Positions 5,100-16,979 of a DNA stretch of 30,660 nt are shown here, piece after piece; within the stretch, counting starts at the first letter, position 1, and each line of letters begins with the position of its first letter. The notes under the pieces were generated by a model. It was not told the DNA's origin. It did not search any database and worked only from the letters and a program-made list of their open reading frames with translations. A program made the position numbers and the translations under genes. Source of the DNA: Planctomycetota bacterium (GTDB taxonomy: Bacteria > Planctomycetota > GCA-002687715 > CAIWVZ01); NCBI GenBank assembly GCA_035626575.1, contig DASPNK010000456.1:1-30660 (forward strand). Reading direction: 5' to 3'.

Positions 5100-5792
5100 G
5101 TGGCGTCGCCTCGCTGGGTGGTCGGAATCGGGAATCCCGGTCCGGACTACGCCGCGACGCGGCACAACGCGGGCTTCATGATCGTCGACGCGCTCGCGGC
5201 CCGGCTCGGCGCCGCGTGGCGTCCGGACGGTGCGGGCGGGTCGGTCGCGACGGGGCGTCGCGGCGACGCGCCCTTCACCCTCGCGAGGCCGGGCACGTTC
5301 GTGAACCGCACGGGTCTGGCGGTCGCGCGTCTGCGTGACGTCGCGGGACCGGCCTTCGACCCGTCGCGGCTTCTCGTCCTCGTGGACGACATGGCGCTCC
5401 CGCTCGGGCGGCTTCGGCTGCGCGCCGCGGGGAGCGACGGCGGCCACAACGGTCTTCGCTCGGTGATCGCCGAGCTCGAGACCGACGCATTCCCCCGCCT
5501 TCGGGCGGGGATCGGCGGCGTCCCCGCCGCGGCGTGGCGCGAGCATGTGCTCGCGCCGTTCGACGCGGAGGAGACGGCGCTCATGGAACGGGTCGTCGCC
5601 AAGGCGGCGGAGATCGCGGAAGGCTTCCTCGACGGAAGGCCGCTCGCGGAACTGCAGGCCGAGGCGAACCGCGCCTTTCCCCGGAAACCCGTTCCGGGGA
5701 CCGGCGGTCCCGGTGATCGCGGCGAGCGCCGCGACGGGCCGCCCGACCGCGGGGCGCGGGGGGAGTCATCCCTCGCGGGAGAGCTTCAGTGA
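5100..5792 (+). CDS. pth: Peptidyl-tRNA hydrolase with ~35-aa C-terminal extension
   Basis: VGIGNPG..Y..TRHNAGF, VDD, GSDGGHNGLRS, RLRAGIG; follows rplY as expected. Confidence 0.93.
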   Translation: MASPRWVVGIGNPGPDYAATRHNAGFMIVDALAARLGAAWRPDGAGGSVATGRRGDAPFTLARPGTFVNRTGLAVARLRDVAGPAFDPSRLLVLVDDMALPLGRLRLRAAGSDGGHNGLRSVIAELETDAFPRLRAGIGGVPAAAWREHVLAPFDAEETALMERVVAKAAEIAEGFLDGRPLAELQAEANRAFPRKPVPGTGGPGDRGERRDGPPDRGARGESSLAGELQ

Positions 5793-6205
5793 AGTACGAA
5801 GGCATGTTCCTGCTGGACAACAGCAAGGTGAAGGCGGACGCCGCCGAGTGCTGCGGGGTGGTCTCCGACCTCCTCAAGAAGCACGGCGCGAACGTCGTGA
5901 AGATCGAGCGTTGGGACGAGCGGAAGCTGGCTTACGAGATCCGCGGGCAGAAGCGCGCCACCTACGTGCTGGCGCACTTCGAGATGGCGCCGGAGAAGCC
6001 GGCCGAGCTGCGCGGCGACGTGAACCTGAGCGAGAGCTTCCTTCGCGCGCTGGTGTTGAACGTCGGCGAGGACTTCCCCCCCTTCGTGACCGCCGCCGAA
6101 TATGAGGCGATGCGGCCCAAGAAGGAGGAGGAGCCGCAGGACGACGGCGGCGACCGCCGCCGGCGCCGCCGCGACGACGACGGGATGGAAGACTTCAACG
6201 CCTGA
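5789..6205 (+). CDS. rpsF: 30S ribosomal protein bS6
   Basis: MKYEGMFLLD, WDERKLAYEI, YVLAHF, LRALV; GTG start overlapping the pth stop. Confidence 0.92.
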   Translation: MKYEGMFLLDNSKVKADAAECCGVVSDLLKKHGANVVKIERWDERKLAYEIRGQKRATYVLAHFEMAPEKPAELRGDVNLSESFLRALVLNVGEDFPPFVTAAEYEAMRPKKEEEPQDDGGDRRRRRRDDDGMEDFNA

Positions 6206-6226
6206 TCGAGAAGGAAGGAGCCGAAC

Positions 6227-6520
6227 ATGCGCGGCATGTCTCAAGCGAAGCTCAAGGCCAAGGAAAAGAAGAAGCGTCTCAAGAAGCTCACCGAGCGCGG
6301 CGTCTGCCGCTTCACTCGCGGGCTGAAGGACCCGGCGGAGATCAAGAAGTCGCTCCAGCAGCTCGACTACAAGAACGTCGACCTGCTCGCGCGCTTCCTC
6401 ACGCCGCAGGGCAAGCTCTTCTCGCGCAAGCGGTCCGGCAACAGCCAGCCGGCCCAGCAGCGCCTGAAGGTCGCCGTGAAGTACGCCCGCCAGCTCGCGC
6501 TCATCCCCTACGTGGGATGA
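6227..6520 (+). CDS. rpsR: 30S ribosomal protein bS18 (non-zinc form)
   Basis: LDYKNVDLLARFL..GKLFSRKRSG, QRLKVAVKYARQLALIPY; SD AAGGAG upstream. Confidence 0.92.
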   Translation: MRGMSQAKLKAKEKKKRLKKLTERGVCRFTRGLKDPAEIKKSLQQLDYKNVDLLARFLTPQGKLFSRKRSGNSQPAQQRLKVAVKYARQLALIPYVG

Positions 6521-6587
6521 GACGCGCCGGTCGTCGCGGCGCGGCCGCGCGACCCCCATCGACCCGAAACGACCCCGAAAACAAGGA

Positions 6588-6607
6588 CGGCCCGCCGGAG
6601 CGGGCCG
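6588..6607 (+). promoter_or_regulatory. 8-bp hairpin between SD-like AAGGA and the rplI ATG
   Basis: CGGCCCGC-CGGA-GCGGGCCG. Confidence 0.55.
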
Positions 6608-6614
6608 ACACACC

Positions 6615-7124
6615 ATGGACGTCATCCTCATCCGCGACGTCGACAAGCTCGGCAAGCGCGGCGCCCGCGTGGCGGTGAAGCCCGGTTTCGCGCGGAACTT
6701 CCTCCTTCCGTTCGGCCACGCCGTGTTGCCGACCGCCGACAACATCCGGCGCACCGAGTCGCAGAAGAAGAAGTGGCTCGCCGAAGACGCCAAGCTCGTC
6801 GAAGCCGCGCGCGGCCTCGCCGACATGCTCAAGGACGTGACTCTCTCCTTCCTGGAGAAGGCGTCCGACGAAGGTCGCCTCTACGGCTCGGTCAACGACA
6901 AGCTCGTCGCGGCGAAGCTCGCCGAGAAGGGCTACAAGATCGATCCGCGCACCGTGCGCCTCGACGCCCCGATCCGCGAGATCGGCGACTACCAGGTGCG
7001 CCTCCGGTTCCACTCCGACGTGGAGCTGCGCATGCCCGTCCGCGTCCGCGCGGAGGGCTTCGAGAACTGGGAGCCCGGCATGCCGATGCAGCGCCAGGCC
7101 CAGGTCGACGCTCCGAAGGCCTGA
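6615..7124 (+). CDS. rplI: 50S ribosomal protein bL9
   Basis: MDVILIRDVDKLGKRG..V.VKPGFARNFLLP, GRLYGSV, PIREIGDY.V.LRFHSDV. Confidence 0.95.
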   Translation: MDVILIRDVDKLGKRGARVAVKPGFARNFLLPFGHAVLPTADNIRRTESQKKKWLAEDAKLVEAARGLADMLKDVTLSFLEKASDEGRLYGSVNDKLVAAKLAEKGYKIDPRTVRLDAPIREIGDYQVRLRFHSDVELRMPVRVRAEGFENWEPGMPMQRQAQVDAPKA

Positions 7125-7198: not shown

Positions 7199-8536
7199 GT
7201 GCACGACCCGGTCGACGGCGGCGTCAAGCCGCCTTACGACCCCGAGGCCGAGATGTGCGCCCTCGGGTCGGTCCTCCTGGACAACGCCGTCCTCGACGAC
7301 CTCGTCCGCTACGTCGGCGCGGACGACTTCTATCACCGCGCGAACCAGCTGATCTTCGAGGCGATCAAAGCCCTCGGGGAGCAGGTGGACGTGGTCACCC
7401 TCAACGCCGAGCTGTCGCGGCGGGGCGTGCTCGACCAGGTGGGCGGCAAGAAGTACCTCGCCGACCTGATGGAGGCGGTCCCCTCCGCGCACAACGTCTC
7501 GGCCTACGCGAAGCTCGTCCGCGACTGCGCGGTCCGCCGGCGGCTTCTCCGGGCGTCCGAGGAGATCCGCGGTCGCGCGCTCCACGGGGGAAAGACGCAG
7601 GACCTCCTCGACTTCGCCGAGCAGGCGGTTTTCGACATCGCCCACGAAGGGTCGCGCTCGGGCACGGTGCGCGTCGGCGACGTGCTGATCGACGTCTTCA
7701 AGCAGCTCGACGCGCTCGTCGGCACGCAGGGCGGCATCACCGGCGTCGATACCGGCTTCTTCCAGCTGAACGAGATCACCGCCGGTTTCCAGCCCGGCGA
7801 CCTGATCGTGATCGCCGCGCGCCCGTCGATGGGGAAGACCACCTTCACCCTGAACTGCGCGCTCAACGCCGCGAAGCTCCAGGGCCGGACCGTCCTCTTC
7901 TTCAGCCTCGAAATGGCGGCCGAGCAGATCGTCACCAACCTGCTCTGCTGCGAGGCGCAGGTGGACGCCTCCCGCGTGCGCCGCGGGCAGATGACCCACC
8001 ACGACTACGGCAAGTGGAACGAGGCCGCCGGCAAGCTGCACGAGCTGCGCTTTTTCGTCGACGCGACGCCGGGCATTTCTCCGGTCGCCATCCGCACCAA
8101 GGCGCGCCGGCTGCTGGCGCGCGAGAAGGCCCTCGACCTCGTGGTGGTCGACTACCTCCAGCTCATGTCGGGCGGCGACGCCGAGTCCCGGCAGCAGGAG
8201 ATCGCCGCGATTTCCCGCTCGCTGAAAGAGCTGGCGCGCGACCTCCGCTGCCCCGTGATCGCGCTTTCGCAGCTCAACCGCGCGCTCGAGTCCCGCAAGG
8301 ACCACCGGCCGATGATGTCCGACCTGCGCGAGTCGGGCGCCATCGAGCAGGACGCCGACCTCATCCTCTTCCTGCACCGCGAGGACTACTATTCCGGCGA
8401 AGCGGTCCCCGGCGATTTCGCCAGGGTGATGGAGATCATCGTGGCGAAGCAGCGCAACGGGCGCACCGGCAAGGTCGAGCTGAACTTTCTGCCGCATCAG
8501 TTCCGCTTCGAGAACAAGTCCGAGGGCTACGCATGA
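7199..8536 (+). CDS. dnaB: Replicative DNA helicase DnaB (445 aa, no intein)
   Basis: Start moved from the track's 6773 to GTG 7199 (AGGAGG 7 nt upstream). PPYDPEAE, Walker A ARPSMGKT, FSLEM, VVVDYLQLM, SQLNR, SDLRESGAIEQDAD, AKQRNG. Confidence 0.96.
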   Translation: MHDPVDGGVKPPYDPEAEMCALGSVLLDNAVLDDLVRYVGADDFYHRANQLIFEAIKALGEQVDVVTLNAELSRRGVLDQVGGKKYLADLMEAVPSAHNVSAYAKLVRDCAVRRRLLRASEEIRGRALHGGKTQDLLDFAEQAVFDIAHEGSRSGTVRVGDVLIDVFKQLDALVGTQGGITGVDTGFFQLNEITAGFQPGDLIVIAARPSMGKTTFTLNCALNAAKLQGRTVLFFSLEMAAEQIVTNLLCCEAQVDASRVRRGQMTHHDYGKWNEAAGKLHELRFFVDATPGISPVAIRTKARRLLAREKALDLVVVDYLQLMSGGDAESRQQEIAAISRSLKELARDLRCPVIALSQLNRALESRKDHRPMMSDLRESGAIEQDADLILFLHREDYYSGEAVPGDFARVMEIIVAKQRNGRTGKVELNFLPHQFRFENKSEGYA

Positions 8537-10956
8537 TCGGGTTCCGCGTCCCCCTCGCGGCCTGCGCGCTCGTCCTTCTCGCCGTCGCTCCCGCGGCGGC
8601 GCAGGATCAGGACGAGGGGCGGACGGTCGTCGCGATCGAGTTCGTCGAGCTGCGGCGCCTGTCGCCGGAGGCGGTGAAGGCGCAGATGGCGCTGAAGGAG
8701 GGCCGGCCCTTCTCCCGCGAGCTGCTGCAGCGCGACATCAAGACGCTGGTCGCGAACGACATCTTCTTCAACGTCCGCGAGGCGACCGTGCGCCCCGACC
8801 CTTCGGGCCAGGGCGTGATCGTGCGCATCAACGGCGAGGAGAACGAGCGCGTCCTCGACGTGATGTTCTTCGGCATGATCGACGCCGATCGCGAGGATCT
8901 CGCGCCGCTGGTGAAGACCCGCGCGGGAGGGCTCGCCGACGCGTTCACGCTCGAGATCGACCGGCGGGACATCGTCGACTGGTACCGGAAGAAAGGCTTC
9001 CACTACGTACAGGTGGAGGTGGTGCGGAGCCGGCTGGAAGGCGTCGAAGACGGGGTGGTGATCGTCTTCCGCATCACCGAGGGGCCCGAGGTCGAGATCG
9101 AGGAGGTGATCTTCGAGGGGAACCATTCCTTCTCGAAGGGCAAGCTCCTGAAGGCGATGAAGGAGACGTCCGAGGACGGCTTCCTCCGCGACGCCACGTT
9201 CGTGCTCGAAGAAGTCCAGCGCGACGTCGTCGCGCTCAACCGCTTCTACCAGGGCGAGGGCTATCTCGACGCCCGCGCGACGTTAATGGGCTTCGAGCCC
9301 ACGCCGGACTTCGAAGACGTCACGGTGCGCATCCGCATCGAAGAGGGCCGCAGGTACTTCGTGCGCGGCGTGCGCATCGAAGGCGTGACGCTGCTCGACG
9401 TCGCCGCGCTGCACGCCGAATTGGAGACCCTCCCCGGCGCGCCCTACCGGCCGGCGGGAGAAACGGCCAAGGACGTCCGTCGCATCCTCGACCGCTACCA
9501 GGAGCTCGCCTACCTCAACGCCGACGTCCGCGACGCCGCGACGGTCGACCTCGAGTCCAACCTCGTCGACGTCGTCATCCGCGTCGTCGAAGGGGAGAAG
9601 ATCTACGTCGGCGAGATCCGCATCCGGAACAACCTCGAGACCCGCGACAACGTCATCCGCCGCGAAATCGAGCTGTTCACCGGCGAACCGCTCAACCAGA
9701 AGAAGCTCGACAAGGCGCGCCGCCGCATCCAGGCCCTCGGTTACTGGGAGCAGTCGCCTCGGGGTTCGGTCGTCGAAGATCCGGTCATCCCGACGGCGTC
9801 GTTCGACGTCTATCGCGAGGCCTACGTCACGCTCCGCGACACCAACCGCGAGAACGTGAAGGACGTTGTCGTGGACGTCGTCGAGCGCGACACGGGGAGC
9901 ATCCGCTTCGCGGTCGGCATCGGCTCCAACGACGGGCTCATCGGCGACGTCACCTATCAGAAGAACAACTTCGACCCGTTCGACCTGCCCGAGGGCTTCG
10001 GCGACATCCTCGACGCCTTCACCGGAGGCGGCGACACGCTGATCCTTTCGGCGGCGCCGGGCTCGCGCTACTCGCGCTTCGGCGCGACCTACGTCAACCC
10101 GCGCGTGGGCGACGGCCCGTACTCGTTCCGGCAGGACCTGTACAAGTCGTTCTACCGGCGCGAAGAGTGGCGCGAAGACCGACTCGGCGGCCGCACGTCG
10201 GTGGGCCGTCGGCTCGGCGAGGACATGAGCGCCGGGATCAGCCTCCGCAACGAAGTGGTCGACGTGCGGCGCATCTCGACGAACGCGCCGCAGATCGTCT
10301 TCGACTTCGAAGGCGAGAACCTGGTCTCCGCCTTGCAGCTCGACTGGCGCCTCGCGCAGCTCGACGACTTTCTCGACCCCACCGACGGCTTCGTGGTCAC
10401 CGCGGCCATCGAGCACGCGGGCCTCTGGGGCGACATCCATTTCAACCAGGTGCTGGTCGAAGGCGAGTACTACATTCCGCTCGGCGAAGACGAAGAGGAG
10501 CGCGCGCACGTGCTGCGCCTCGACGCCCGCGCCGGCTGGATGAACGAATACGGCGATTCGCACGACGTGCCGGTCTACGAGCGGTTCTTCCTCGGCGGGC
10601 ACGGCTCGCTGCGCGGCTTCCGCTTCCGCGGCGCCGGCCCGCACGAGAACGGCACGCCGACCGGCGGCAAGGCGCTGTGGACCGCCGGCGCCGAATACGC
10701 GTATCCGATCTTCGGCGACGGCACGCCGGGGTCGCCGAACCTGCGCGGCGTGTTCTTCGTCGACACCGGATCGCTCGCGTCCTCGTGGAGCGACTCCGAC
10801 ATCGGCGACGTCCGCGTGTCGGTTGGGTTCGGTTTCCGCGTCGTGGTACCGTTCCTCGGTCCGCGTCCGATCGCCATCGATTTCGGGTTCCCGCTGAGGA
10901 AGTCCGACGGCGACGAAGAGCGGTTGCTGTCCTTCAGCTTCGGTTCGAACTTCTGA
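8533..10956 (+). CDS. bamA: Outer-membrane protein assembly factor BamA (5 POTRA + barrel, 807 aa)
   Basis: Start at ATG 8533 (ATGA overlap with dnaB); signal peptide AAA-Q; five POTRA-like units; ETRDNVIRRE, ERFFLGG..SLRGF, C-terminal FSFGSNF; followed by skp-lpxD. Confidence 0.93.
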   Translation: MIGFRVPLAACALVLLAVAPAAAQDQDEGRTVVAIEFVELRRLSPEAVKAQMALKEGRPFSRELLQRDIKTLVANDIFFNVREATVRPDPSGQGVIVRINGEENERVLDVMFFGMIDADREDLAPLVKTRAGGLADAFTLEIDRRDIVDWYRKKGFHYVQVEVVRSRLEGVEDGVVIVFRITEGPEVEIEEVIFEGNHSFSKGKLLKAMKETSEDGFLRDATFVLEEVQRDVVALNRFYQGEGYLDARATLMGFEPTPDFEDVTVRIRIEEGRRYFVRGVRIEGVTLLDVAALHAELETLPGAPYRPAGETAKDVRRILDRYQELAYLNADVRDAATVDLESNLVDVVIRVVEGEKIYVGEIRIRNNLETRDNVIRREIELFTGEPLNQKKLDKARRRIQALGYWEQSPRGSVVEDPVIPTASFDVYREAYVTLRDTNRENVKDVVVDVVERDTGSIRFAVGIGSNDGLIGDVTYQKNNFDPFDLPEGFGDILDAFTGGGDTLILSAAPGSRYSRFGATYVNPRVGDGPYSFRQDLYKSFYRREEWREDRLGGRTSVGRRLGEDMSAGISLRNEVVDVRRISTNAPQIVFDFEGENLVSALQLDWRLAQLDDFLDPTDGFVVTAAIEHAGLWGDIHFNQVLVEGEYYIPLGEDEEERAHVLRLDARAGWMNEYGDSHDVPVYERFFLGGHGSLRGFRFRGAGPHENGTPTGGKALWTAGAEYAYPIFGDGTPGSPNLRGVFFVDTGSLASSWSDSDIGDVRVSVGFGFRVVVPFLGPRPIAIDFGFPLRKSDGDEERLLSFSFGSNF

Positions 10957-11058: not shown

Positions 11059-11613
11059 ATGCGTCGCACCTTCCTCGCTTCGTTCGTCGCCCTCTTCCTG
11101 TGCGGAGCCGCCTCCGCTCAGGCGCCGGTTCCGCCCTTCGCCGTCGTCGACTTCGGCAAGGCGATCCTCGAGTACAAGAAGCACGCGGAGATGAACTCCA
11201 AGCTCGAGCAGGAGCTGGAGGCGGTCAAGGCGAGCGTGCACCGCGAGCGGCAACGCATCGCGGCGCTGAAGGAAGGCCTCGACCTGTTCATCGAGGGGTC
11301 GCGCGAGCGTCTCGACCAGGAGAAGAAGATCCGCCTCGCCGAGATCGAGGTCGATCTCAACACCAAGCTCGCCGCCTACGAGATCCAGGGCCGTATCGCC
11401 GAGAACCTGAAGAAGGTCTACGGCGACGTCGCGGACACGGCGAAGAAGATCGCCGAGGAGCGCGGCATCAAGCTGGTCATCTCCTACAACGGGAACCCGA
11501 TCACGGCGAAGACGGAAGAGGGCGTGAAGAACGCCATCATCACCCGCGCCGTGCTGTACGCCGACCCCTCGATCGATCTGACCGCCGAGGTGGTGGCGCG
11601 CCTCAACAAGTGA
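11059..11613 (+). CDS. skp: Periplasmic chaperone Skp/OmpH
   Basis: Signal peptide, [10 protein letters not shown], long coiled coil, [19 protein letters not shown]; sits between bamA and lpxD. Confidence 0.87.
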
Positions 11614-11617
11614 TCCC

Positions 11618-12673
11618 GTGATCACCACCGTCCGCGAGCTGGCGGCGTTGGTCGGCGGCCGCGTGGTCGGGAACGCCGACGCCGTCGTCGTCGGGTTCGC
11701 CGGCATCGAGACCGCCGGGCCGGGCCAGATCACGTTCGTCGCGCAGGAGAAGTGGCGCGCGGCTCTCAAGACGACCGCCGCCGCCTGCGTGGTCGTGCAG
11801 GAGGAGGACCCCGCCTGCGCCGCGGCGCAGATCGTGGTCGCCGACGCGAACCTCGCCTTCGCGCGCCTCGTGGCGACGGTGTCGCACCGCCGCGCCCTCG
11901 GCGCCGGCGGCGTCGACCGCGCCGCCCACGTGCATCCCGACGCGAAGGTCGATCCCACGGCCGCCGTCCGGCCCGGGGCGGTCGTCGCGGCCCGCGCCGT
12001 CGTCGGGCCGCGCACCGTCGTGGGGGCGAACGCGTACGTCGGCGAAGGCGCCGTGGTCGGCGCCGACTGCCTGCTGCACGCGGGCTGCGCGGTGCTCGAC
12101 GACGTGAAGGTCGGCGACCGCTGCATCCTGCACGCGGGCGCCGTCGTCGGCTCCGACGGCTTCGGCTTCGCGACCGACGCGCGCGGCGTGCATCACAAGA
12201 TCCCCCAGGTGGGCACCGTGGTCGTCGAAGACGACGTCGAGATCGGCGCCAACGCCTGCGTCGACCGCGCGCGCTTCGACGAGACCCGCGTCGGCCGCGG
12301 GACGAAGATCGACAACCTCGTGCAGATCGGCCACAACGTCGCGATCGGGTCGAACTGCCTCCTGGTCGCGCACTCCGGCGTCGCGGGCTCGACGGTCCTC
12401 GGGCGCAACGTCGTCCTCGGGGCGATGACCGGCGTGACCGGCCACGTGAAGCTCGGGGACGGCGCGCAGGTCGCCGCCATGAGCGGCGTGAGCAAGGATC
12501 TCGACGGCGGGCAGGGCTACCTCGGCGTGCCGGCGAAGCCGTACCGCGAGGGTCTGAAAGTGCGCGCGCTCACGCAGCAGCTCCCCGAGCTGAACGAACG
12601 CCTGAAGCAGGCGCTCGACCGCATCGCCCGGCTCGAAGCGAAGCTCGCCGCCGCGGAGGGCGCGCCTTCGTGA
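11618..12673 (+). CDS. lpxD: UDP-3-O-acylglucosamine N-acyltransferase
   Basis: ITFV, hexapeptide repeats, [37 protein letters not shown]. Confidence 0.95.
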
Positions 12674-13962
12674 GGAATCAGCGCACCCTCGCGCGCCCGG
12701 TGACCCTGCGCGGCGTCGCGCTCCATTCGGGGCGCGAAGTCACGCTGACGGTGAAGCCCGCCGAGCCGGACGCGGGCGTGAGCTTCGTGCGCGTCGACGT
12801 GCCCGGCCGTCCCCGCATCCCGCTCGACCGGCGCTCCGCGACGCGCCGCGACCGTCAGACCGCGGTCACCGACGGCAAGGTCGAGGTCGGCACCGTCGAG
12901 CACCTCGCCTCCGGGCTGTTCGTCCTCGGCGTCGACAACGTGACGTGCGAAGTCGACGGCGACGAGCTGCCCGGTCTCGACGGCTCCGCGCTGCAGTACG
13001 CCGAGGCGCTCCGGGAAGCGGGCCGCGTCGAGCAGAAGGCGCCGCGCCGCACGCTGGTGCTCGACAAGCCTGTCGCCGTCTCCGTCGGGGACGGCGCCAT
13101 CAGCGCGTTCCCGAACCCGGGCGGTCTGAAGGTCTCGTACACGCTCGACTACGGCCGCGCCCCCGGCCTCCGGCCTCAGCACGTCGTGGTCGACGTCTCC
13201 GAGGAGAAGTTCTTCTCGCAGGTCGCGCCCGCCCGCACGTTCTGCCTCGAGGCCGAAGCGCGGAAGCTCCAGGAGATGGGGTTCGGCAAAGGCGCCAATA
13301 CGCGCAACACGCTGGTGATCGGCGAGCACGGGCTCGTCGACAACGCCTACGTCCTCGAAGACGAGCCCGCGCGCCACAAGGTGCTCGACCTGCTCGGCGA
13401 CCTGCTCATGCTCGGGTCGGACCTGCAGGCCCACGTGGTGGCGGTGAAGACGGGGCACAAGGCGAACCTCGAGCTGGTGCACCGGCTCGCCGAGCGTCAG
13501 GAGGCCAAGGCCGGCGCGACGCTGCCCGAGGGCGCGCTCGACGTGAAGGAGATCATGAAGATCATCCCTCACCGCGCGCCGTTCCTCTTCGTCGACCGCG
13601 TGCTCTCGCTGGAGGGTTACCAGCGCGCCGTCGGGGTGAAGAACGTCTCGATCAACGAGCCGTACTTCGACGGACACTGGCCGGGCCAGCCGATCCTTCC
13701 GGGCGTCGTCCAGGTGGAGGCGCTCGCCCAGCTCGCGGGGGTTCTGCTCCTCCGCCGCCTCGCCAACACGCAGAAGGTGGCGGTGATGCTCGCCATCGAC
13801 AAGATCAAGTTCCGCCGCCCCGTCACGCCCGGCGACCAGCTCCGCCTCGAATGCGAGACGCTGTCGATCCGCGCGAGCTCGGCGAAGGTGCACGGCCGCG
13901 CGTCGGTCGACGGCGAGTCGACCTGCGAGACCGTGATGAAGTTCATGATGATGGACGCATGA
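12670..13962 (+). CDS. lpxC: Bifunctional LpxC (UDP-3-O-acyl-GlcNAc deacetylase) - FabZ (3-hydroxyacyl-ACP dehydratase), 430 aa
   Basis: Start GTG 12670 (GTGA overlap). LpxC: [33 protein letters not shown]. FabZ: [43 protein letters not shown]. Confidence 0.95.
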
Positions 13963-14777
13963 CGGTCATGGAGGGAACCGCGCCGACGCGCATCCATCCC
14001 ACCGCGGTGATCGACCCGAGCGCCGAGATCGGCCCGGGGTGCGACGTCGGCCCTTACGCCGTCGTCCGCGCCGGCGTGCAGATGGGCGCGAACTGCCGTA
14101 TCGGCGCGTGGTCGAGCGTCGGACCCTGGGTGCGGCTCGGGCGCGACAACACGGTCTACGACCACGCCGCCGTCGGCGGCGACCCGCAGGACAAGAGCTG
14201 GCGCGGCGAGCCCACCTGGCTCGTCCTCGGCGACGGGAACCAGGTGCGCGAGTTCGCCACCCTCAACCGCGGGACGTCGAAGGGCGACGGCGTGACGCGC
14301 ATCGGGAACCGCAACCTCTTCATGGCGTGCTCGCACGTCGCGCACGACTGCACGGTGGGCGACGGCTGCGTCTTCGCCAACAACGTCCTGCTGGCGGGCC
14401 ACGTCTTCGTCGAAGACGGCGCCATCCTCAACGGCGCGGCGGGCGTGCAACAGTTCACCACCGTCGGGCGACTCGCCTACGTCGGCGGGCTGACGCGCAT
14501 CGTGCACGACGTGCCGCCGTACATGATCGTCGAGGGCAACCCGGCGAAGGTGCGCAAGCCCAACGTCGTCGGCATGCAGCGCGCGGGCGTCCCCGAGGAG
14601 CGCATCGCCGCCGTGCGCGAGGCGCATCGCATGCTCTTCCGCAGCAAGCGCCCGCAATCGGAGGTCCTCGACGAGCTGGTCGGCCGCGCCGACGCCTCGC
14701 CGGAGACGCTGGAGCTGGTCGCGTTCCTGCGCCGCGTCGAGAAGGGCGCCAACGGCCGCGCCCGCGAGAAGAAGTGA
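13959..14777 (+). CDS. lpxA: Acyl-ACP--UDP-GlcNAc acyltransferase
   Basis: Start ATG 13959 (ATGA overlap; 13968 also possible). IHPTAVID, PQDK, IREF-like VREFATLNRGT, HVAHDC, LAGHV, HDVPPY, GNPA. Confidence 0.95.
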   Translation: MTVMEGTAPTRIHPTAVIDPSAEIGPGCDVGPYAVVRAGVQMGANCRIGAWSSVGPWVRLGRDNTVYDHAAVGGDPQDKSWRGEPTWLVLGDGNQVREFATLNRGTSKGDGVTRIGNRNLFMACSHVAHDCTVGDGCVFANNVLLAGHVFVEDGAILNGAAGVQQFTTVGRLAYVGGLTRIVHDVPPYMIVEGNPAKVRKPNVVGMQRAGVPEERIAAVREAHRMLFRSKRPQSEVLDELVGRADASPETLELVAFLRRVEKGANGRAREKK

Positions 14778-15793
14778 GCGCCGAGCCCCTCGCGGTCGCC
14801 GTCGTCGGCGCCGGCCATCTGGGGCGCATCCACGCCCGCATCCTCTCGGAGCTTCCCGGCGTCCGCCTCGCGGCGGTCGTCGACGCCGACCCGGAGCGCG
14901 CACGCGCCGTCGCCAAAGAGCGCCGCTGCCCCGCGTTGATCGACGCGTCCCAGCTCCCGGCCGACGTTCGGGCGGCGGTCGTCGCGACGCCCACCCGCAC
15001 GCACCACGCCGTCGCCGGCCCCCTGCTCGACCGCGGCGTCGCGTGCCTCGTCGAGAAGCCGATCACCGCGACCGTCGCCGAGGCGCGGGACCTGGTCGAC
15101 CGCGCCGCGCGCTCCGGCGCGACGTTGATGGCGGGCCACGTCGAGCGCTTCAACCCGGCGGTGATCGCGCTCATGGAGCGCGGGCTCAGGCCCCGGTTCT
15201 TCGAGGCGCACCGCGTCTCGCCGTTCAGCTTCCGCTCGGTCGACGTCGGCGTGGTGCTGGACATGATGATCCACGACCTCGACATCGTGCTGCACCTCGC
15301 CCGGTCTCCGCTGCGCCGCGTGGACGCGGTCGGCGTCGCGGTCACCGGCGAGCACGAAGACCTCGCCAACGCGCGCCTCGAGTTCGAGAACGGCGCCGTG
15401 GCCAACCTCACCGCCTCGCGGCTCGCGCTCAAGACCGAGCGCAAGCTCCGCATGTTCGCGCCGGGCTGCTACGCGACGATCGACTTCTTCAAGCGCGAGT
15501 CGCAGATCATCCGCCCCGGCGCCGATCTGAAGCGCGCGCTGGCCGACGGCAAGGCCGCGCTCGGCGCCGTCACGCCGCTGCAGCTCATGACGCGCGACCT
15601 TCTCCGCATCGAGAAGCCTCCGGTGAAGGAGGAGGAGTCGCTGAAGCGCGAGGACGCGGAGTTCCTCGCGGCGGTGCGCGAGCGCCGGGCGCCGGCCGTG
15701 ACCGGCGCGGACGGCCTCGCCGCGGTGGAGGCCGCCGATCGCATCACCGCTTCGCTGCGCGCGCGCGCCGAAGCGGACCGGGAGCCGACCTGA
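14774..15793 (+). CDS. Gfo/Idh/MocA-family NAD-dependent oxidoreductase, GnnA-like (UDP-GlcNAc 3-dehydrogenase candidate), 339 aa
   Basis: Start GTG 14774 overlapping the lpxA stop. VGAGHLGRIH, LVEKP, GHVERFNP, DVGVVLDMMIHDLD, ANLTASR. Confidence 0.85.
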   Translation: MSAEPLAVAVVGAGHLGRIHARILSELPGVRLAAVVDADPERARAVAKERRCPALIDASQLPADVRAAVVATPTRTHHAVAGPLLDRGVACLVEKPITATVAEARDLVDRAARSGATLMAGHVERFNPAVIALMERGLRPRFFEAHRVSPFSFRSVDVGVVLDMMIHDLDIVLHLARSPLRRVDAVGVAVTGEHEDLANARLEFENGAVANLTASRLALKTERKLRMFAPGCYATIDFFKRESQIIRPGADLKRALADGKAALGAVTPLQLMTRDLLRIEKPPVKEEESLKREDAEFLAAVRERRAPAVTGADGLAAVEAADRITASLRARAEADREPT

Positions 15794-16221
15794 TGACGAC
15801 GACCTGGGTTCGAGCCGCCGCGGCCGTCGCGGTCCTGAGCTGCGCAGGCTGCGCCTCCGACGCGCCGGGGCTCCGCGAATCGCTGACGCTGTCCGCGCCG
15901 GCGGTCACCTCCGACGGCTGGACCGGGGCGTGGGGGACGACCCGTCGCGTGGAGCTCGCGCCCAGGCTCCACGGCGGCCGGCTCGCCGCGCTCCGGGTCA
16001 CGGCGACCGACGAGCTCGGTCGGCCGGCGGCGTCGGCGCCCGCGGTGGTCGCGCTCGTCGACGGCGGCCGCGCGACGTCGTCGCCAGGCGACGGCGCGAC
16101 GACCGTCGTCACGTTCGATCCGCCGATCGCCGACGGCGCGCCGTTCGCCCTCGACGTGACGGCGGCCGACCCGGCGCCCGAAGCCTGGCGCCTCCGCCTG
16201 GTCCCGGTCGTCGTCTACTGA
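15793..16221 (+). CDS. Hypothetical lipoprotein, 142 aa
   Basis: ATG in a TGATG overlap with the upstream stop; signal peptide with lipobox CAG-C; beta-strand-rich mature part. Confidence 0.6.
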   Translation: MTTTWVRAAAAVAVLSCAGCASDAPGLRESLTLSAPAVTSDGWTGAWGTTRRVELAPRLHGGRLAALRVTATDELGRPAASAPAVVALVDGGRATSSPGDGATTVVTFDPPIADGAPFALDVTAADPAPEAWRLRLVPVVVY

Positions 16222-16979
16222 GCGGCGCCGCCCGGCCTCCGCGGCGGAGCGCCCATGCCGGCCGGCCGGCGCGTGCGCGGCCCGCGCAGCAGCAGGCCGA
16301 GATGCCCGCGCAGCGCCCGCCACACGCGCATCTTCGAGACGCCCGCTTCGCGCCGCCGCAGGGTCGAGGGGATCTCGACGACGCGCTTCCGGCGGCGCAG
16401 CGCGCTGAGGAGCATCTCCGCCGTGGCGTCGAAGCCGTCGCGGGAGGGGAGGCACTCGAGGAACGCCTCGCGGCGCCAGGCGCGGAATCCGCAGGTGAAG
16501 CACGACACGCCGCGGCCGCGCCCGAGCAGCCGCGCCCGGTGCGCGAGGGTCGCGCCCGTCGACAGGAGCCGTCGCCACGGCGCCGTCTCGCCGTAGGTCG
16601 CGCCCGCGCCGAACGGCGTGGCGCCCGCGACGTCGGCGCCCGCCTCGAGGCCGGCGAGCAGCTTCAGCGCGTCCGCCAGCGGGTAGGCGCGATCGGCGTC
16701 GTAGGTGATCACCGCTTCGCCCGCGACGTGCGCGGCGCCTTCGCGCACGGCCTGGCCGATCCCGCCGTTCGGCGTCAGCCCGAGCACCTTGCACGGGAAC
16801 CAGGCCGCGGCGGCGAAGTCGAAGAGCCGATCCGGCGTGCCGTCGACCGACCCGTCGTCGACGAAGACCACCTCGGGGAAATGCGGCTTGAGCAGGGCGG
16901 GGAGGTCGCGCAGCTCCTCGAACAGCGCCGGGAGCGCGTCGATCTCGTTGAAGCAGGGGATCAGCACCGAGACGAACAT
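16215..16979 (-). CDS. Glycosyltransferase family 2 (DPM1/polyprenol-phosphate glycosyltransferase-like), 254 aa
   Basis: C-terminal part of track ORF 16215..19595; ATG 16979 gives MFVSVLIPCFNE, VFVDDGSVDGT, YDAD, CFTCGFRAWRR, EIP..LRRREAGVSKM. Confidence 0.88.
   Translation of the reverse strand: MFVSVLIPCFNEIDALPALFEELRDLPALLKPHFPEVVFVDDGSVDGTPDRLFDFAAAAWFPCKVLGLTPNGGIGQAVREGAAHVAGEAVITYDADRAYPLADALKLLAGLEAGADVAGATPFGAGATYGETAPWRRLLSTGATLAHRARLLGRGRGVSCFTCGFRAWRREAFLECLPSRDGFDATAEMLLSALRRRKRVVEIPSTLRRREAGVSKMRVWRALRGHLGLLLRGPRTRRPAGMGAPPRRPGGAAQ

Follow-up and report, generated by a model that had tools for sequence, protein, structure and literature searches.

A GnnA-like dehydrogenase gene coupled to lpxA in a planctomycete and a predicted 2,3-diaminoglucose lipid A pathway

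In a 30,660-nucleotide stretch of planctomycete DNA (contig DASPNK010000456.1 of assembly GCA_035626575.1, or C456; hereafter the window), the lipid A gene lpxA runs directly into a gene for a dehydrogenase of the Gfo/Idh/MocA family, designated P0002 (14774-15793, forward strand). Our analysis indicated that P0002 is probably the planctomycete orthologue of GnnA, the UDP-N-acetylglucosamine (UDP-GlcNAc) 3-dehydrogenase, co-translated with LpxD, an LpxC-FabZ fusion and LpxA and feeding a predicted pathway to lipid A containing 2,3-diamino-2,3-dideoxyglucose (GlcN3N). Judged from the sequence, an amide-linked lipid A is accordingly a likely feature of the source planctomycete, whose metagenome-assembled genome (MAG; 3.83 Mb, 729 contigs, 83% complete) probably belongs to the class Phycisphaerae. 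The gene structure, the homology, the conservation of motifs, the synteny and the distribution were observed, and from them we infer the substrate, the partner enzyme and the lipid A product.

P0002, a protein of 339 residues with a GTG start, carries both the N-terminal (PF01408, 5.1e-25) and the C-terminal (PF22725, 3.3e-11) Pfam domains of the Gfo/Idh/MocA family. In a sequence search of the Protein Data Bank (PDB), its best match was 7bvj, the GnnA of Acidithiobacillus ferrooxidans (174.9 bits, E 2.7e-50), and the next solved relative followed at 67 bits (E 1.4e-17). When an AlphaFold model of P0002 made from 31 homologues (mean predicted local distance difference test score, pLDDT, 89.6) was searched with Foldseek, the entries 7bvj and 7bvk, titled 'UDP-N-acetylglucosamine 3-dehydrogenase GnnA from Acidithiobacillus ferrooxidans', filled the top five places (E 6.6e-34 to 1.2e-31) with template-modelling (TM) scores of 0.83/0.90 over 326 columns at 36% identity, and the next match (E 1.9e-23) was ten orders of magnitude weaker. 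WbpB/WlbA, the UDP-GlcNAcA 3-dehydrogenase, was absent from the best 60 of the 62 PDB sequence matches (E up to 1e-3), and no WbpB/WlbA entry stood among the Foldseek matches listed. The GnnA-like identity that an earlier note on this DNA had proposed without database searches was thus borne out both by sequence and by fold. Since sequence, fold and the motifs described below all favored GnnA, and since the scores of P0002 on other family models fell short of their cut-offs, we filed it as a GnnA homologue with a predicted UDP-GlcNAc 3-dehydrogenase activity.

The translation of P0002 holds GAGHLGRIH, EKP, GHVERFNP and DVGVVLDMMIHDLD. Across 80 homologues, the residues G12-x-G14-x-x-G17, D37, E94-K95-P96, R154-S155-x-D157, D163-x-M-I-H167-D168-x-D170, S215-R216, R223 and R226 were invariant or nearly so, and E94-K95-P96, R154-S155-x-D157, D163...H167-D168, S215-R216, R223 and R226 paired with identical residues in 7bvj. 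By analogy with the family, these residues may take part in catalysis or substrate binding. A. ferrooxidans GnnA has the same RSxD...DxMIHDLD and SR...R..R blocks as P0002; they differed in Gfo534, which is encoded on contig C534 and is the only close paralogue of P0002 in the MAG (35% identity over 221 residues, 72 bits). Gfo534 fell into a clade separate from that of P0002 (support 1.0); its best solved relatives were 3c1a and GnnA, with no WbpB among the 18 matches listed (E up to 1e-10), and it also matched the archaeal model NF040723, far under the cut-off.

Because the window has about 70% G+C, its lists of open reading frames (ORFs) were crowded with spurious frames; genes were called from frame analysis of third-position G+C (GC3) together with Pfam and NCBIfam scans. 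The P0002 gene closes an operon on the forward strand that comprises lpxD for the UDP-3-O-acylglucosamine N-acyltransferase (11618-12673; TIGR01853, 325.9 bits against a cut-off of 242.5; NF002060, 362 bits), a 430-residue lpxC-fabZ fusion joining the deacetylase to the 3-hydroxyacyl-acyl carrier protein (ACP) dehydratase in one frame (12670-13962; Pfam LpxC 3.3e-81, FabA 8.4e-28), and lpxA for the acyl-ACP:UDP-GlcNAc acyltransferase P0001 (13959-14777; NF003657, 316 bits, cut-off 226; TIGR01852, 284 bits, cut-off 231). The best PDB matches of this LpxA were themselves LpxA entries, with 6p9p, 2jf2 and 1lxa first (E 5e-63). The four genes are chained by 4-nucleotide start/stop overlaps, namely GTGA at the lpxD/lpxC-fabZ junction (12670-12673), ATGA at the lpxC-fabZ/lpxA junction (13959-13962) and again GTGA where the TGA stop of lpxA (14775-14777) overlaps the GTG start of P0002 (14774), and the reading frames of both lpxA and P0002 were backed by the GC3 analysis. 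The overlap with the lpxA stop and the motifs quoted in the earlier note were therefore confirmed by the junction itself, the translation and the Pfam domains.

The same arrangement recurred in other genomes. Among the 77 related loci with sufficient upstream sequence, 47 had an orthologue of the window lpxA directly upstream on the same strand. As the upstream junctions overlap in the same manner and lpxA lies directly 5' in these 47 loci, the coupling of lpxA to P0002 is not a matter of chance. The LpxC-FabZ fusion was likewise conserved in 47 of the 49 related loci with a match. Typically the P0002-like gene closes the operon: no conserved co-directional gene was found 3' of it when a downstream partner was sought in the related loci, and its commonest downstream neighbor was a convergent gene (25 loci).

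The best 80 related loci all belonged to Planctomycetota, mostly to Phycisphaerae (Tepidisphaerales, Phycisphaerales and Sedimentisphaerales), in agreement with the probable planctomycete origin suggested in the earlier note, and Poriferisphaera sp. WC338 and Fontivita pretiosa B-254, both in culture, were among them. All of the P0002 homologues listed, at least 120 in number, were planctomycete-like. In a sample of 201 Planctomycetota genomes, each at least 90% complete, a homologue (threshold E 1e-20) was present in 174 (87%).

On these grounds we propose that P0002 would oxidize the 3-hydroxyl group of UDP-GlcNAc to the 3-keto sugar in a reaction dependent on nicotinamide adenine dinucleotide (NAD), that a pyridoxal phosphate (PLP)-dependent C3 aminotransferase encoded elsewhere would convert the keto sugar into UDP-GlcNAc3N, and that LpxA would then N-acylate position 3 of this nucleotide. 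The expected product is a lipid A backbone consisting at least partly of GlcN3N and bearing amide-linked chains. As the earlier note had stated, the window holds no DegT-family gene for the aminotransferase GnnB, all nine PF01041 matches of the MAG lying on other contigs. The note had left two possibilities, a GnnB encoded elsewhere or a keto sugar diverted to another product, and had counted a genome devoid of GnnB against its proposal; such a lack does not apply here, because contig C534 carries a DegT-family sugar C3 aminotransferase. This protein, DegT534 (C534:4327-5439, reverse strand), is the sole full-length DegT/DnrJ/EryC1 protein of the MAG, and its structure model reached a pLDDT of 96. 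Its nearest solved relatives were all sugar C3 aminotransferases, namely the Archaeoglobus veneficus sugar transaminase, WbpE (E 2.2e-63), DesV, QdtB and Pcryo_0616. DegT534 is a plausible candidate for GnnB and the most likely enzyme for the UDP-GlcNAc3N step.

DegT534 is the third gene of a cassette on the reverse strand of C534 (4327-7009, locus L009), in which its start overlaps the stop of Hex534 (5436-5936), a WlbB-like hexapeptide N-acetyltransferase whose best PDB match is 3mqg (E 3.5e-51), which we take to be the WlbB 3-N-acetyltransferase (compare the references in PMC10622841), and in which Gfo534 (6008-7009) is the first gene. The cassette predicts a UDP-2,3-diacetamido-2,3-dideoxy sugar, and since the aminotransferase sits in a cassette with a dehydrogenase and a 3-N-acetyltransferase, DegT534 would serve a branch point at which UDP-GlcNAc3N passes either to LpxA for lipid A or, where present, to the acetyltransferase for a diacetamido sugar of a glycan. 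Of nine loci in the MAG's order, eight showed the full three-gene cassette and one showed the acetyltransferase and the aminotransferase only; in other parts of the phylum, genes of the DegT534 clade were solitary with varying neighbors. Five complete or nearly complete Phycisphaerae genomes each held a member of this clade as their sole WbpE-near C3-type DegT protein, with the other paralogues in separate clades, and four of the five combined a GnnA-like gene with a lone member of the clade and no WlbB-like acetyltransferase. A comparison of which of the 201 genomes hold the GnnA-like gene and which hold DegT534 proved uninformative, as the aminotransferase clade is almost universal.

Several observations weigh against this assignment of gene and pathway. 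On NF040723, the equivalog model for the archaeal UDP-GlcNAc 3-dehydrogenase, P0002 scored 180.8 bits against a cut-off of 450 with a match spanning model positions 1-246 of 302, and it is thus placed in a predicted activity class related to this model but outside that equivalog. In the families f13 and f34 and in genus g4, a P0002 query found no GnnA-like gene although lpxD-lpxC/fabZ-lpxA is retained, and a profile search detected no GnnA orthologue in two f34 genomes. As several lineages keep these lpx genes with no GnnA-like gene found, the latter is dispensable for lipid A synthesis as such, and such an optional addition is as expected for GnnA. The DegT534 clade, for its part, occurred in 198 of the 201 genomes and stood alone in f34, f40 and f41 genomes with no GnnA orthologue found; being nearly universal and occurring where no GnnA was found, it is not specifically tied to GnnA. 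The cassette was also present in genus g4, in which no GnnA-like gene was found, and DegT534 must therefore have a GnnA-independent role. For genomes with no GnnA found, we had predicted that the DegT534-clade gene would always have a WlbB-like acetyltransferase as its neighbor; one f34 genome and genus g4 agreed with this, but nine further f34/f40/f41 loci did not, and a profile search detected no GnnA orthologue in the five of their genomes that were searched. The failure of this prediction weakens the argument from lone aminotransferases. In addition, LpxH (TIGR01854), LpxI (PF06230) and LpxK (PF02606) were not found in the 83%-complete MAG, and a 2016 study by Mahat and colleagues is said to have reported glucosamine (GlcN) in the lipopolysaccharide (LPS) of Gemmata.

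Two genomes of genus g4, which belongs to the MAG's order, deserve separate mention. G014 and G127 (loci L129 and L130; 2.6-2.7 Mb) keep lpxD-lpxC/fabZ-lpxA with an LpxA 57-58% identical to that of the window, and the P0002 query revealed no GnnA-like gene either after lpxA or elsewhere in either genome. Both might serve as natural controls when the lipid A prediction is put to the test.

If P0002 is a true GnnA for lipid A, its aminotransferase might still be a dedicated GnnB encoded in the unassembled part of the genome, about 17%, with DegT534 serving only the diacetamido-sugar cassette. The fragmented state of the MAG leaves room for such a gene, DegT534 lies within the three-gene cassette in the MAG's order even where no GnnA-like gene was found, and other Phycisphaerae genomes have two to four DegT paralogues each. 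We nevertheless consider this arrangement unlikely, in view of the single WbpE-near C3-type DegT, of the DegT534 clade, in each of the five complete or nearly complete genomes, and of the fact that none of the 80 loci has a same-strand DegT gene beside the GnnA-like gene. Somewhat less likely again is a role of P0002 in supplying a surface glycan with UDP-3-keto-GlcNAc or another, related keto sugar, in which case the adjacency to lpxA would reflect a shared UDP-GlcNAc supply or envelope co-regulation. Hex534 could make a diacetamido sugar from UDP-GlcNAc3N, lpxA is retained in the lineages with no GnnA-like gene found, and 30 of the 77 loci have no lpxA directly upstream, about 25 of them having none within 8 kb upstream; yet the C534 cassette already owns a dehydrogenase, Gfo534, and the 4-nucleotide coupling together with the 47 adjacent loci points to lipid A.

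It is very improbable that P0002 is a generic Gfo/Idh/MocA oxidoreductase acting on another substrate such as inositol. Its homologues are named 'predicted dehydrogenase', 'Gfo/Idh/MocA family oxidoreductase' and, once, 'Inositol 2-dehydrogenase' in public records, and P0002 does match the inositol 2-dehydrogenase (IolG) model TIGR04380 weakly, but its 107.3 bits are far under the cut-off of 355, inositol dehydrogenase structures matched worse than GnnA by at least 30 orders of magnitude, the conserved signature fits GnnA, and the operon context is that of lipid A. A GnnA homologue feeding lipid A remained the preferred assignment of P0002, with DegT534 as a plausible partner.

Of the remaining lipid A genes, among which the earlier note had suggested a search for LpxB and LpxH/LpxI, lpxB was located on contig C306 (9257-10447) and two waaA-like matches were present, while LpxH and LpxI went undetected as noted above. 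Their lack and that of LpxK may be due to the incompleteness of the MAG or to divergent enzymes, and at 83% completeness the non-detection is no proof of absence. The MAG also encodes LpxA2, a full-length LpxA paralogue 36% identical to the window LpxA (C189:1352-2176, reverse strand, locus L112), whose gene sits after a gene for a pair of ACT domains and apart from the other lpx genes. LpxA2 is not orthologous to the extra lpxA copies of other Phycisphaerae, where many loci, as well as many of Sedimentisphaerales, have two tandem lpxA genes directly 5' of the GnnA-like gene in the order lpxD ... lpxA-lpxA-gnnA (for example L037:6303-7918, L044:6369-7914 and L048:6330-7911). A comparison with solved LpxA structures gave no discrimination in sugar-nucleotide selectivity: both paralogues matched 6p9p, 2jf2 and 1lxa best, and 3hsq, presumably the Leptospira LpxA enzyme, was near-equal for both. 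As both match the same LpxA structures, no sugar-nucleotide preference can be assigned to either.

A broader proposal can be framed for the phylum, which we regard as speculative and improbable as a whole. Most Planctomycetota would carry a backbone made at least in part of GlcN3N by way of a branch point, with the GnnA-like dehydrogenase, dedicated to lipid A, and Gfo534, dedicated to the glycan, both feeding one shared C3 aminotransferase. UDP-GlcNAc and UDP-GlcNAc3N would be apportioned between the window LpxA and LpxA2, or between the tandem lpxA products, to yield a mixed or hybrid backbone, and the lineages with no GnnA-like gene found would then be natural GlcN-only controls.

The other genes called in the window surround this operon. 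Upstream lie dnaB (7199-8536), bamA for an Omp85 protein with POTRA repeats (8533-10956; Pfam Omp85 1.5e-53, POTRA 1e-43) and a skp/ompH chaperone gene (11059-11613; Pfam OmpH 1.9e-14), all on the forward strand, bamA providing an outer-membrane context 5' of the lpx genes. Downstream, a convergent family-2 glycosyltransferase gene occupies 16215-16979 on the reverse strand. The 420-nucleotide gap between it and the P0002 gene (15794-16214) contains most of a 90-codon forward-strand ORF with high third-position G+C (15949-16221), for which a family scan gave no match; scans of the gap for terminators, promoters and Rfam families were all empty.

Should the preferred reading of P0002 as a lipid A GnnA hold, amide-linked GlcN3N lipid A would be present in most Planctomycetota (87% of the genomes sampled). 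Such lipid A resists hydrolysis better, and in Campylobacter it makes the cells less sensitive to antimicrobial peptides and weakens the activation of Toll-like receptor 4 (TLR4) (PMC8036547); because of these effects, it would bear on the envelope robustness of planctomycetes. With the gene spread throughout the phylum, lineages in which it was not found and cultured carriers, the lipid A prediction is readily testable at the bench. For annotation, we suggest 'probable UDP-GlcNAc 3-dehydrogenase' in place of 'predicted dehydrogenase' or 'inositol dehydrogenase'. The gain is incremental, since neither the chemistry nor the enzyme family is new. Our literature search found no paper tying gnnA to planctomycete lipid A and no lipid A structure for Planctomycetota.

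The closest known counterpart is the A. ferrooxidans system, in which, as in many other bacteria, GnnA and GnnB turn UDP-GlcNAc into UDP-GlcNAc3N for lipid A, according to PMC8036547 and PMC5644692, in which Sweet et al. (2004) is the source cited for these functions. A further reference for this GnnA (PDB 7bvj and 7bvk) is Manissorn et al. (2020), which PMC9636410 cites. P0002 shares with A. ferrooxidans GnnA the two-domain Gfo/Idh/MocA fold over its full length, the Rossmann GxGxxG, the EKP lysine and the D-x3-H motif. Where the A. ferrooxidans enzyme has GH(I)KRVHP, P0002 and all planctomycete homologues have GH(V)ERFNP, and the C-terminal 90 or so residues of P0002 are too diverged for alignment by sequence only. 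The P0002 gene also differs in ending its operon with no gnnB after it. In adjoining lpxA it resembles gnnA of A. ferrooxidans, for which the earlier note gives the gene order lpxA-gnnA-gnnB-lpxB.

A precedent for gnnA with no gnnB neighbor is Mesorhizobium loti MAFF303099, which has GlcN3N lipid A and unlinked gnnA and gnnB genes (PMC5644692); its gnnA, however, is also away from the lpx cluster, whereas the P0002 gene is translationally coupled to lpxA. The C534 cassette has the same three enzyme types as the WbpB/WbpE/WbpD (WlbA/WlbC/WlbB) pathway, but P0002 lies outside this cassette. Taken together, the locus is a further member of the known GnnA/GnnB system, from which it differs only by an unlinked and possibly glycan-shared aminotransferase.

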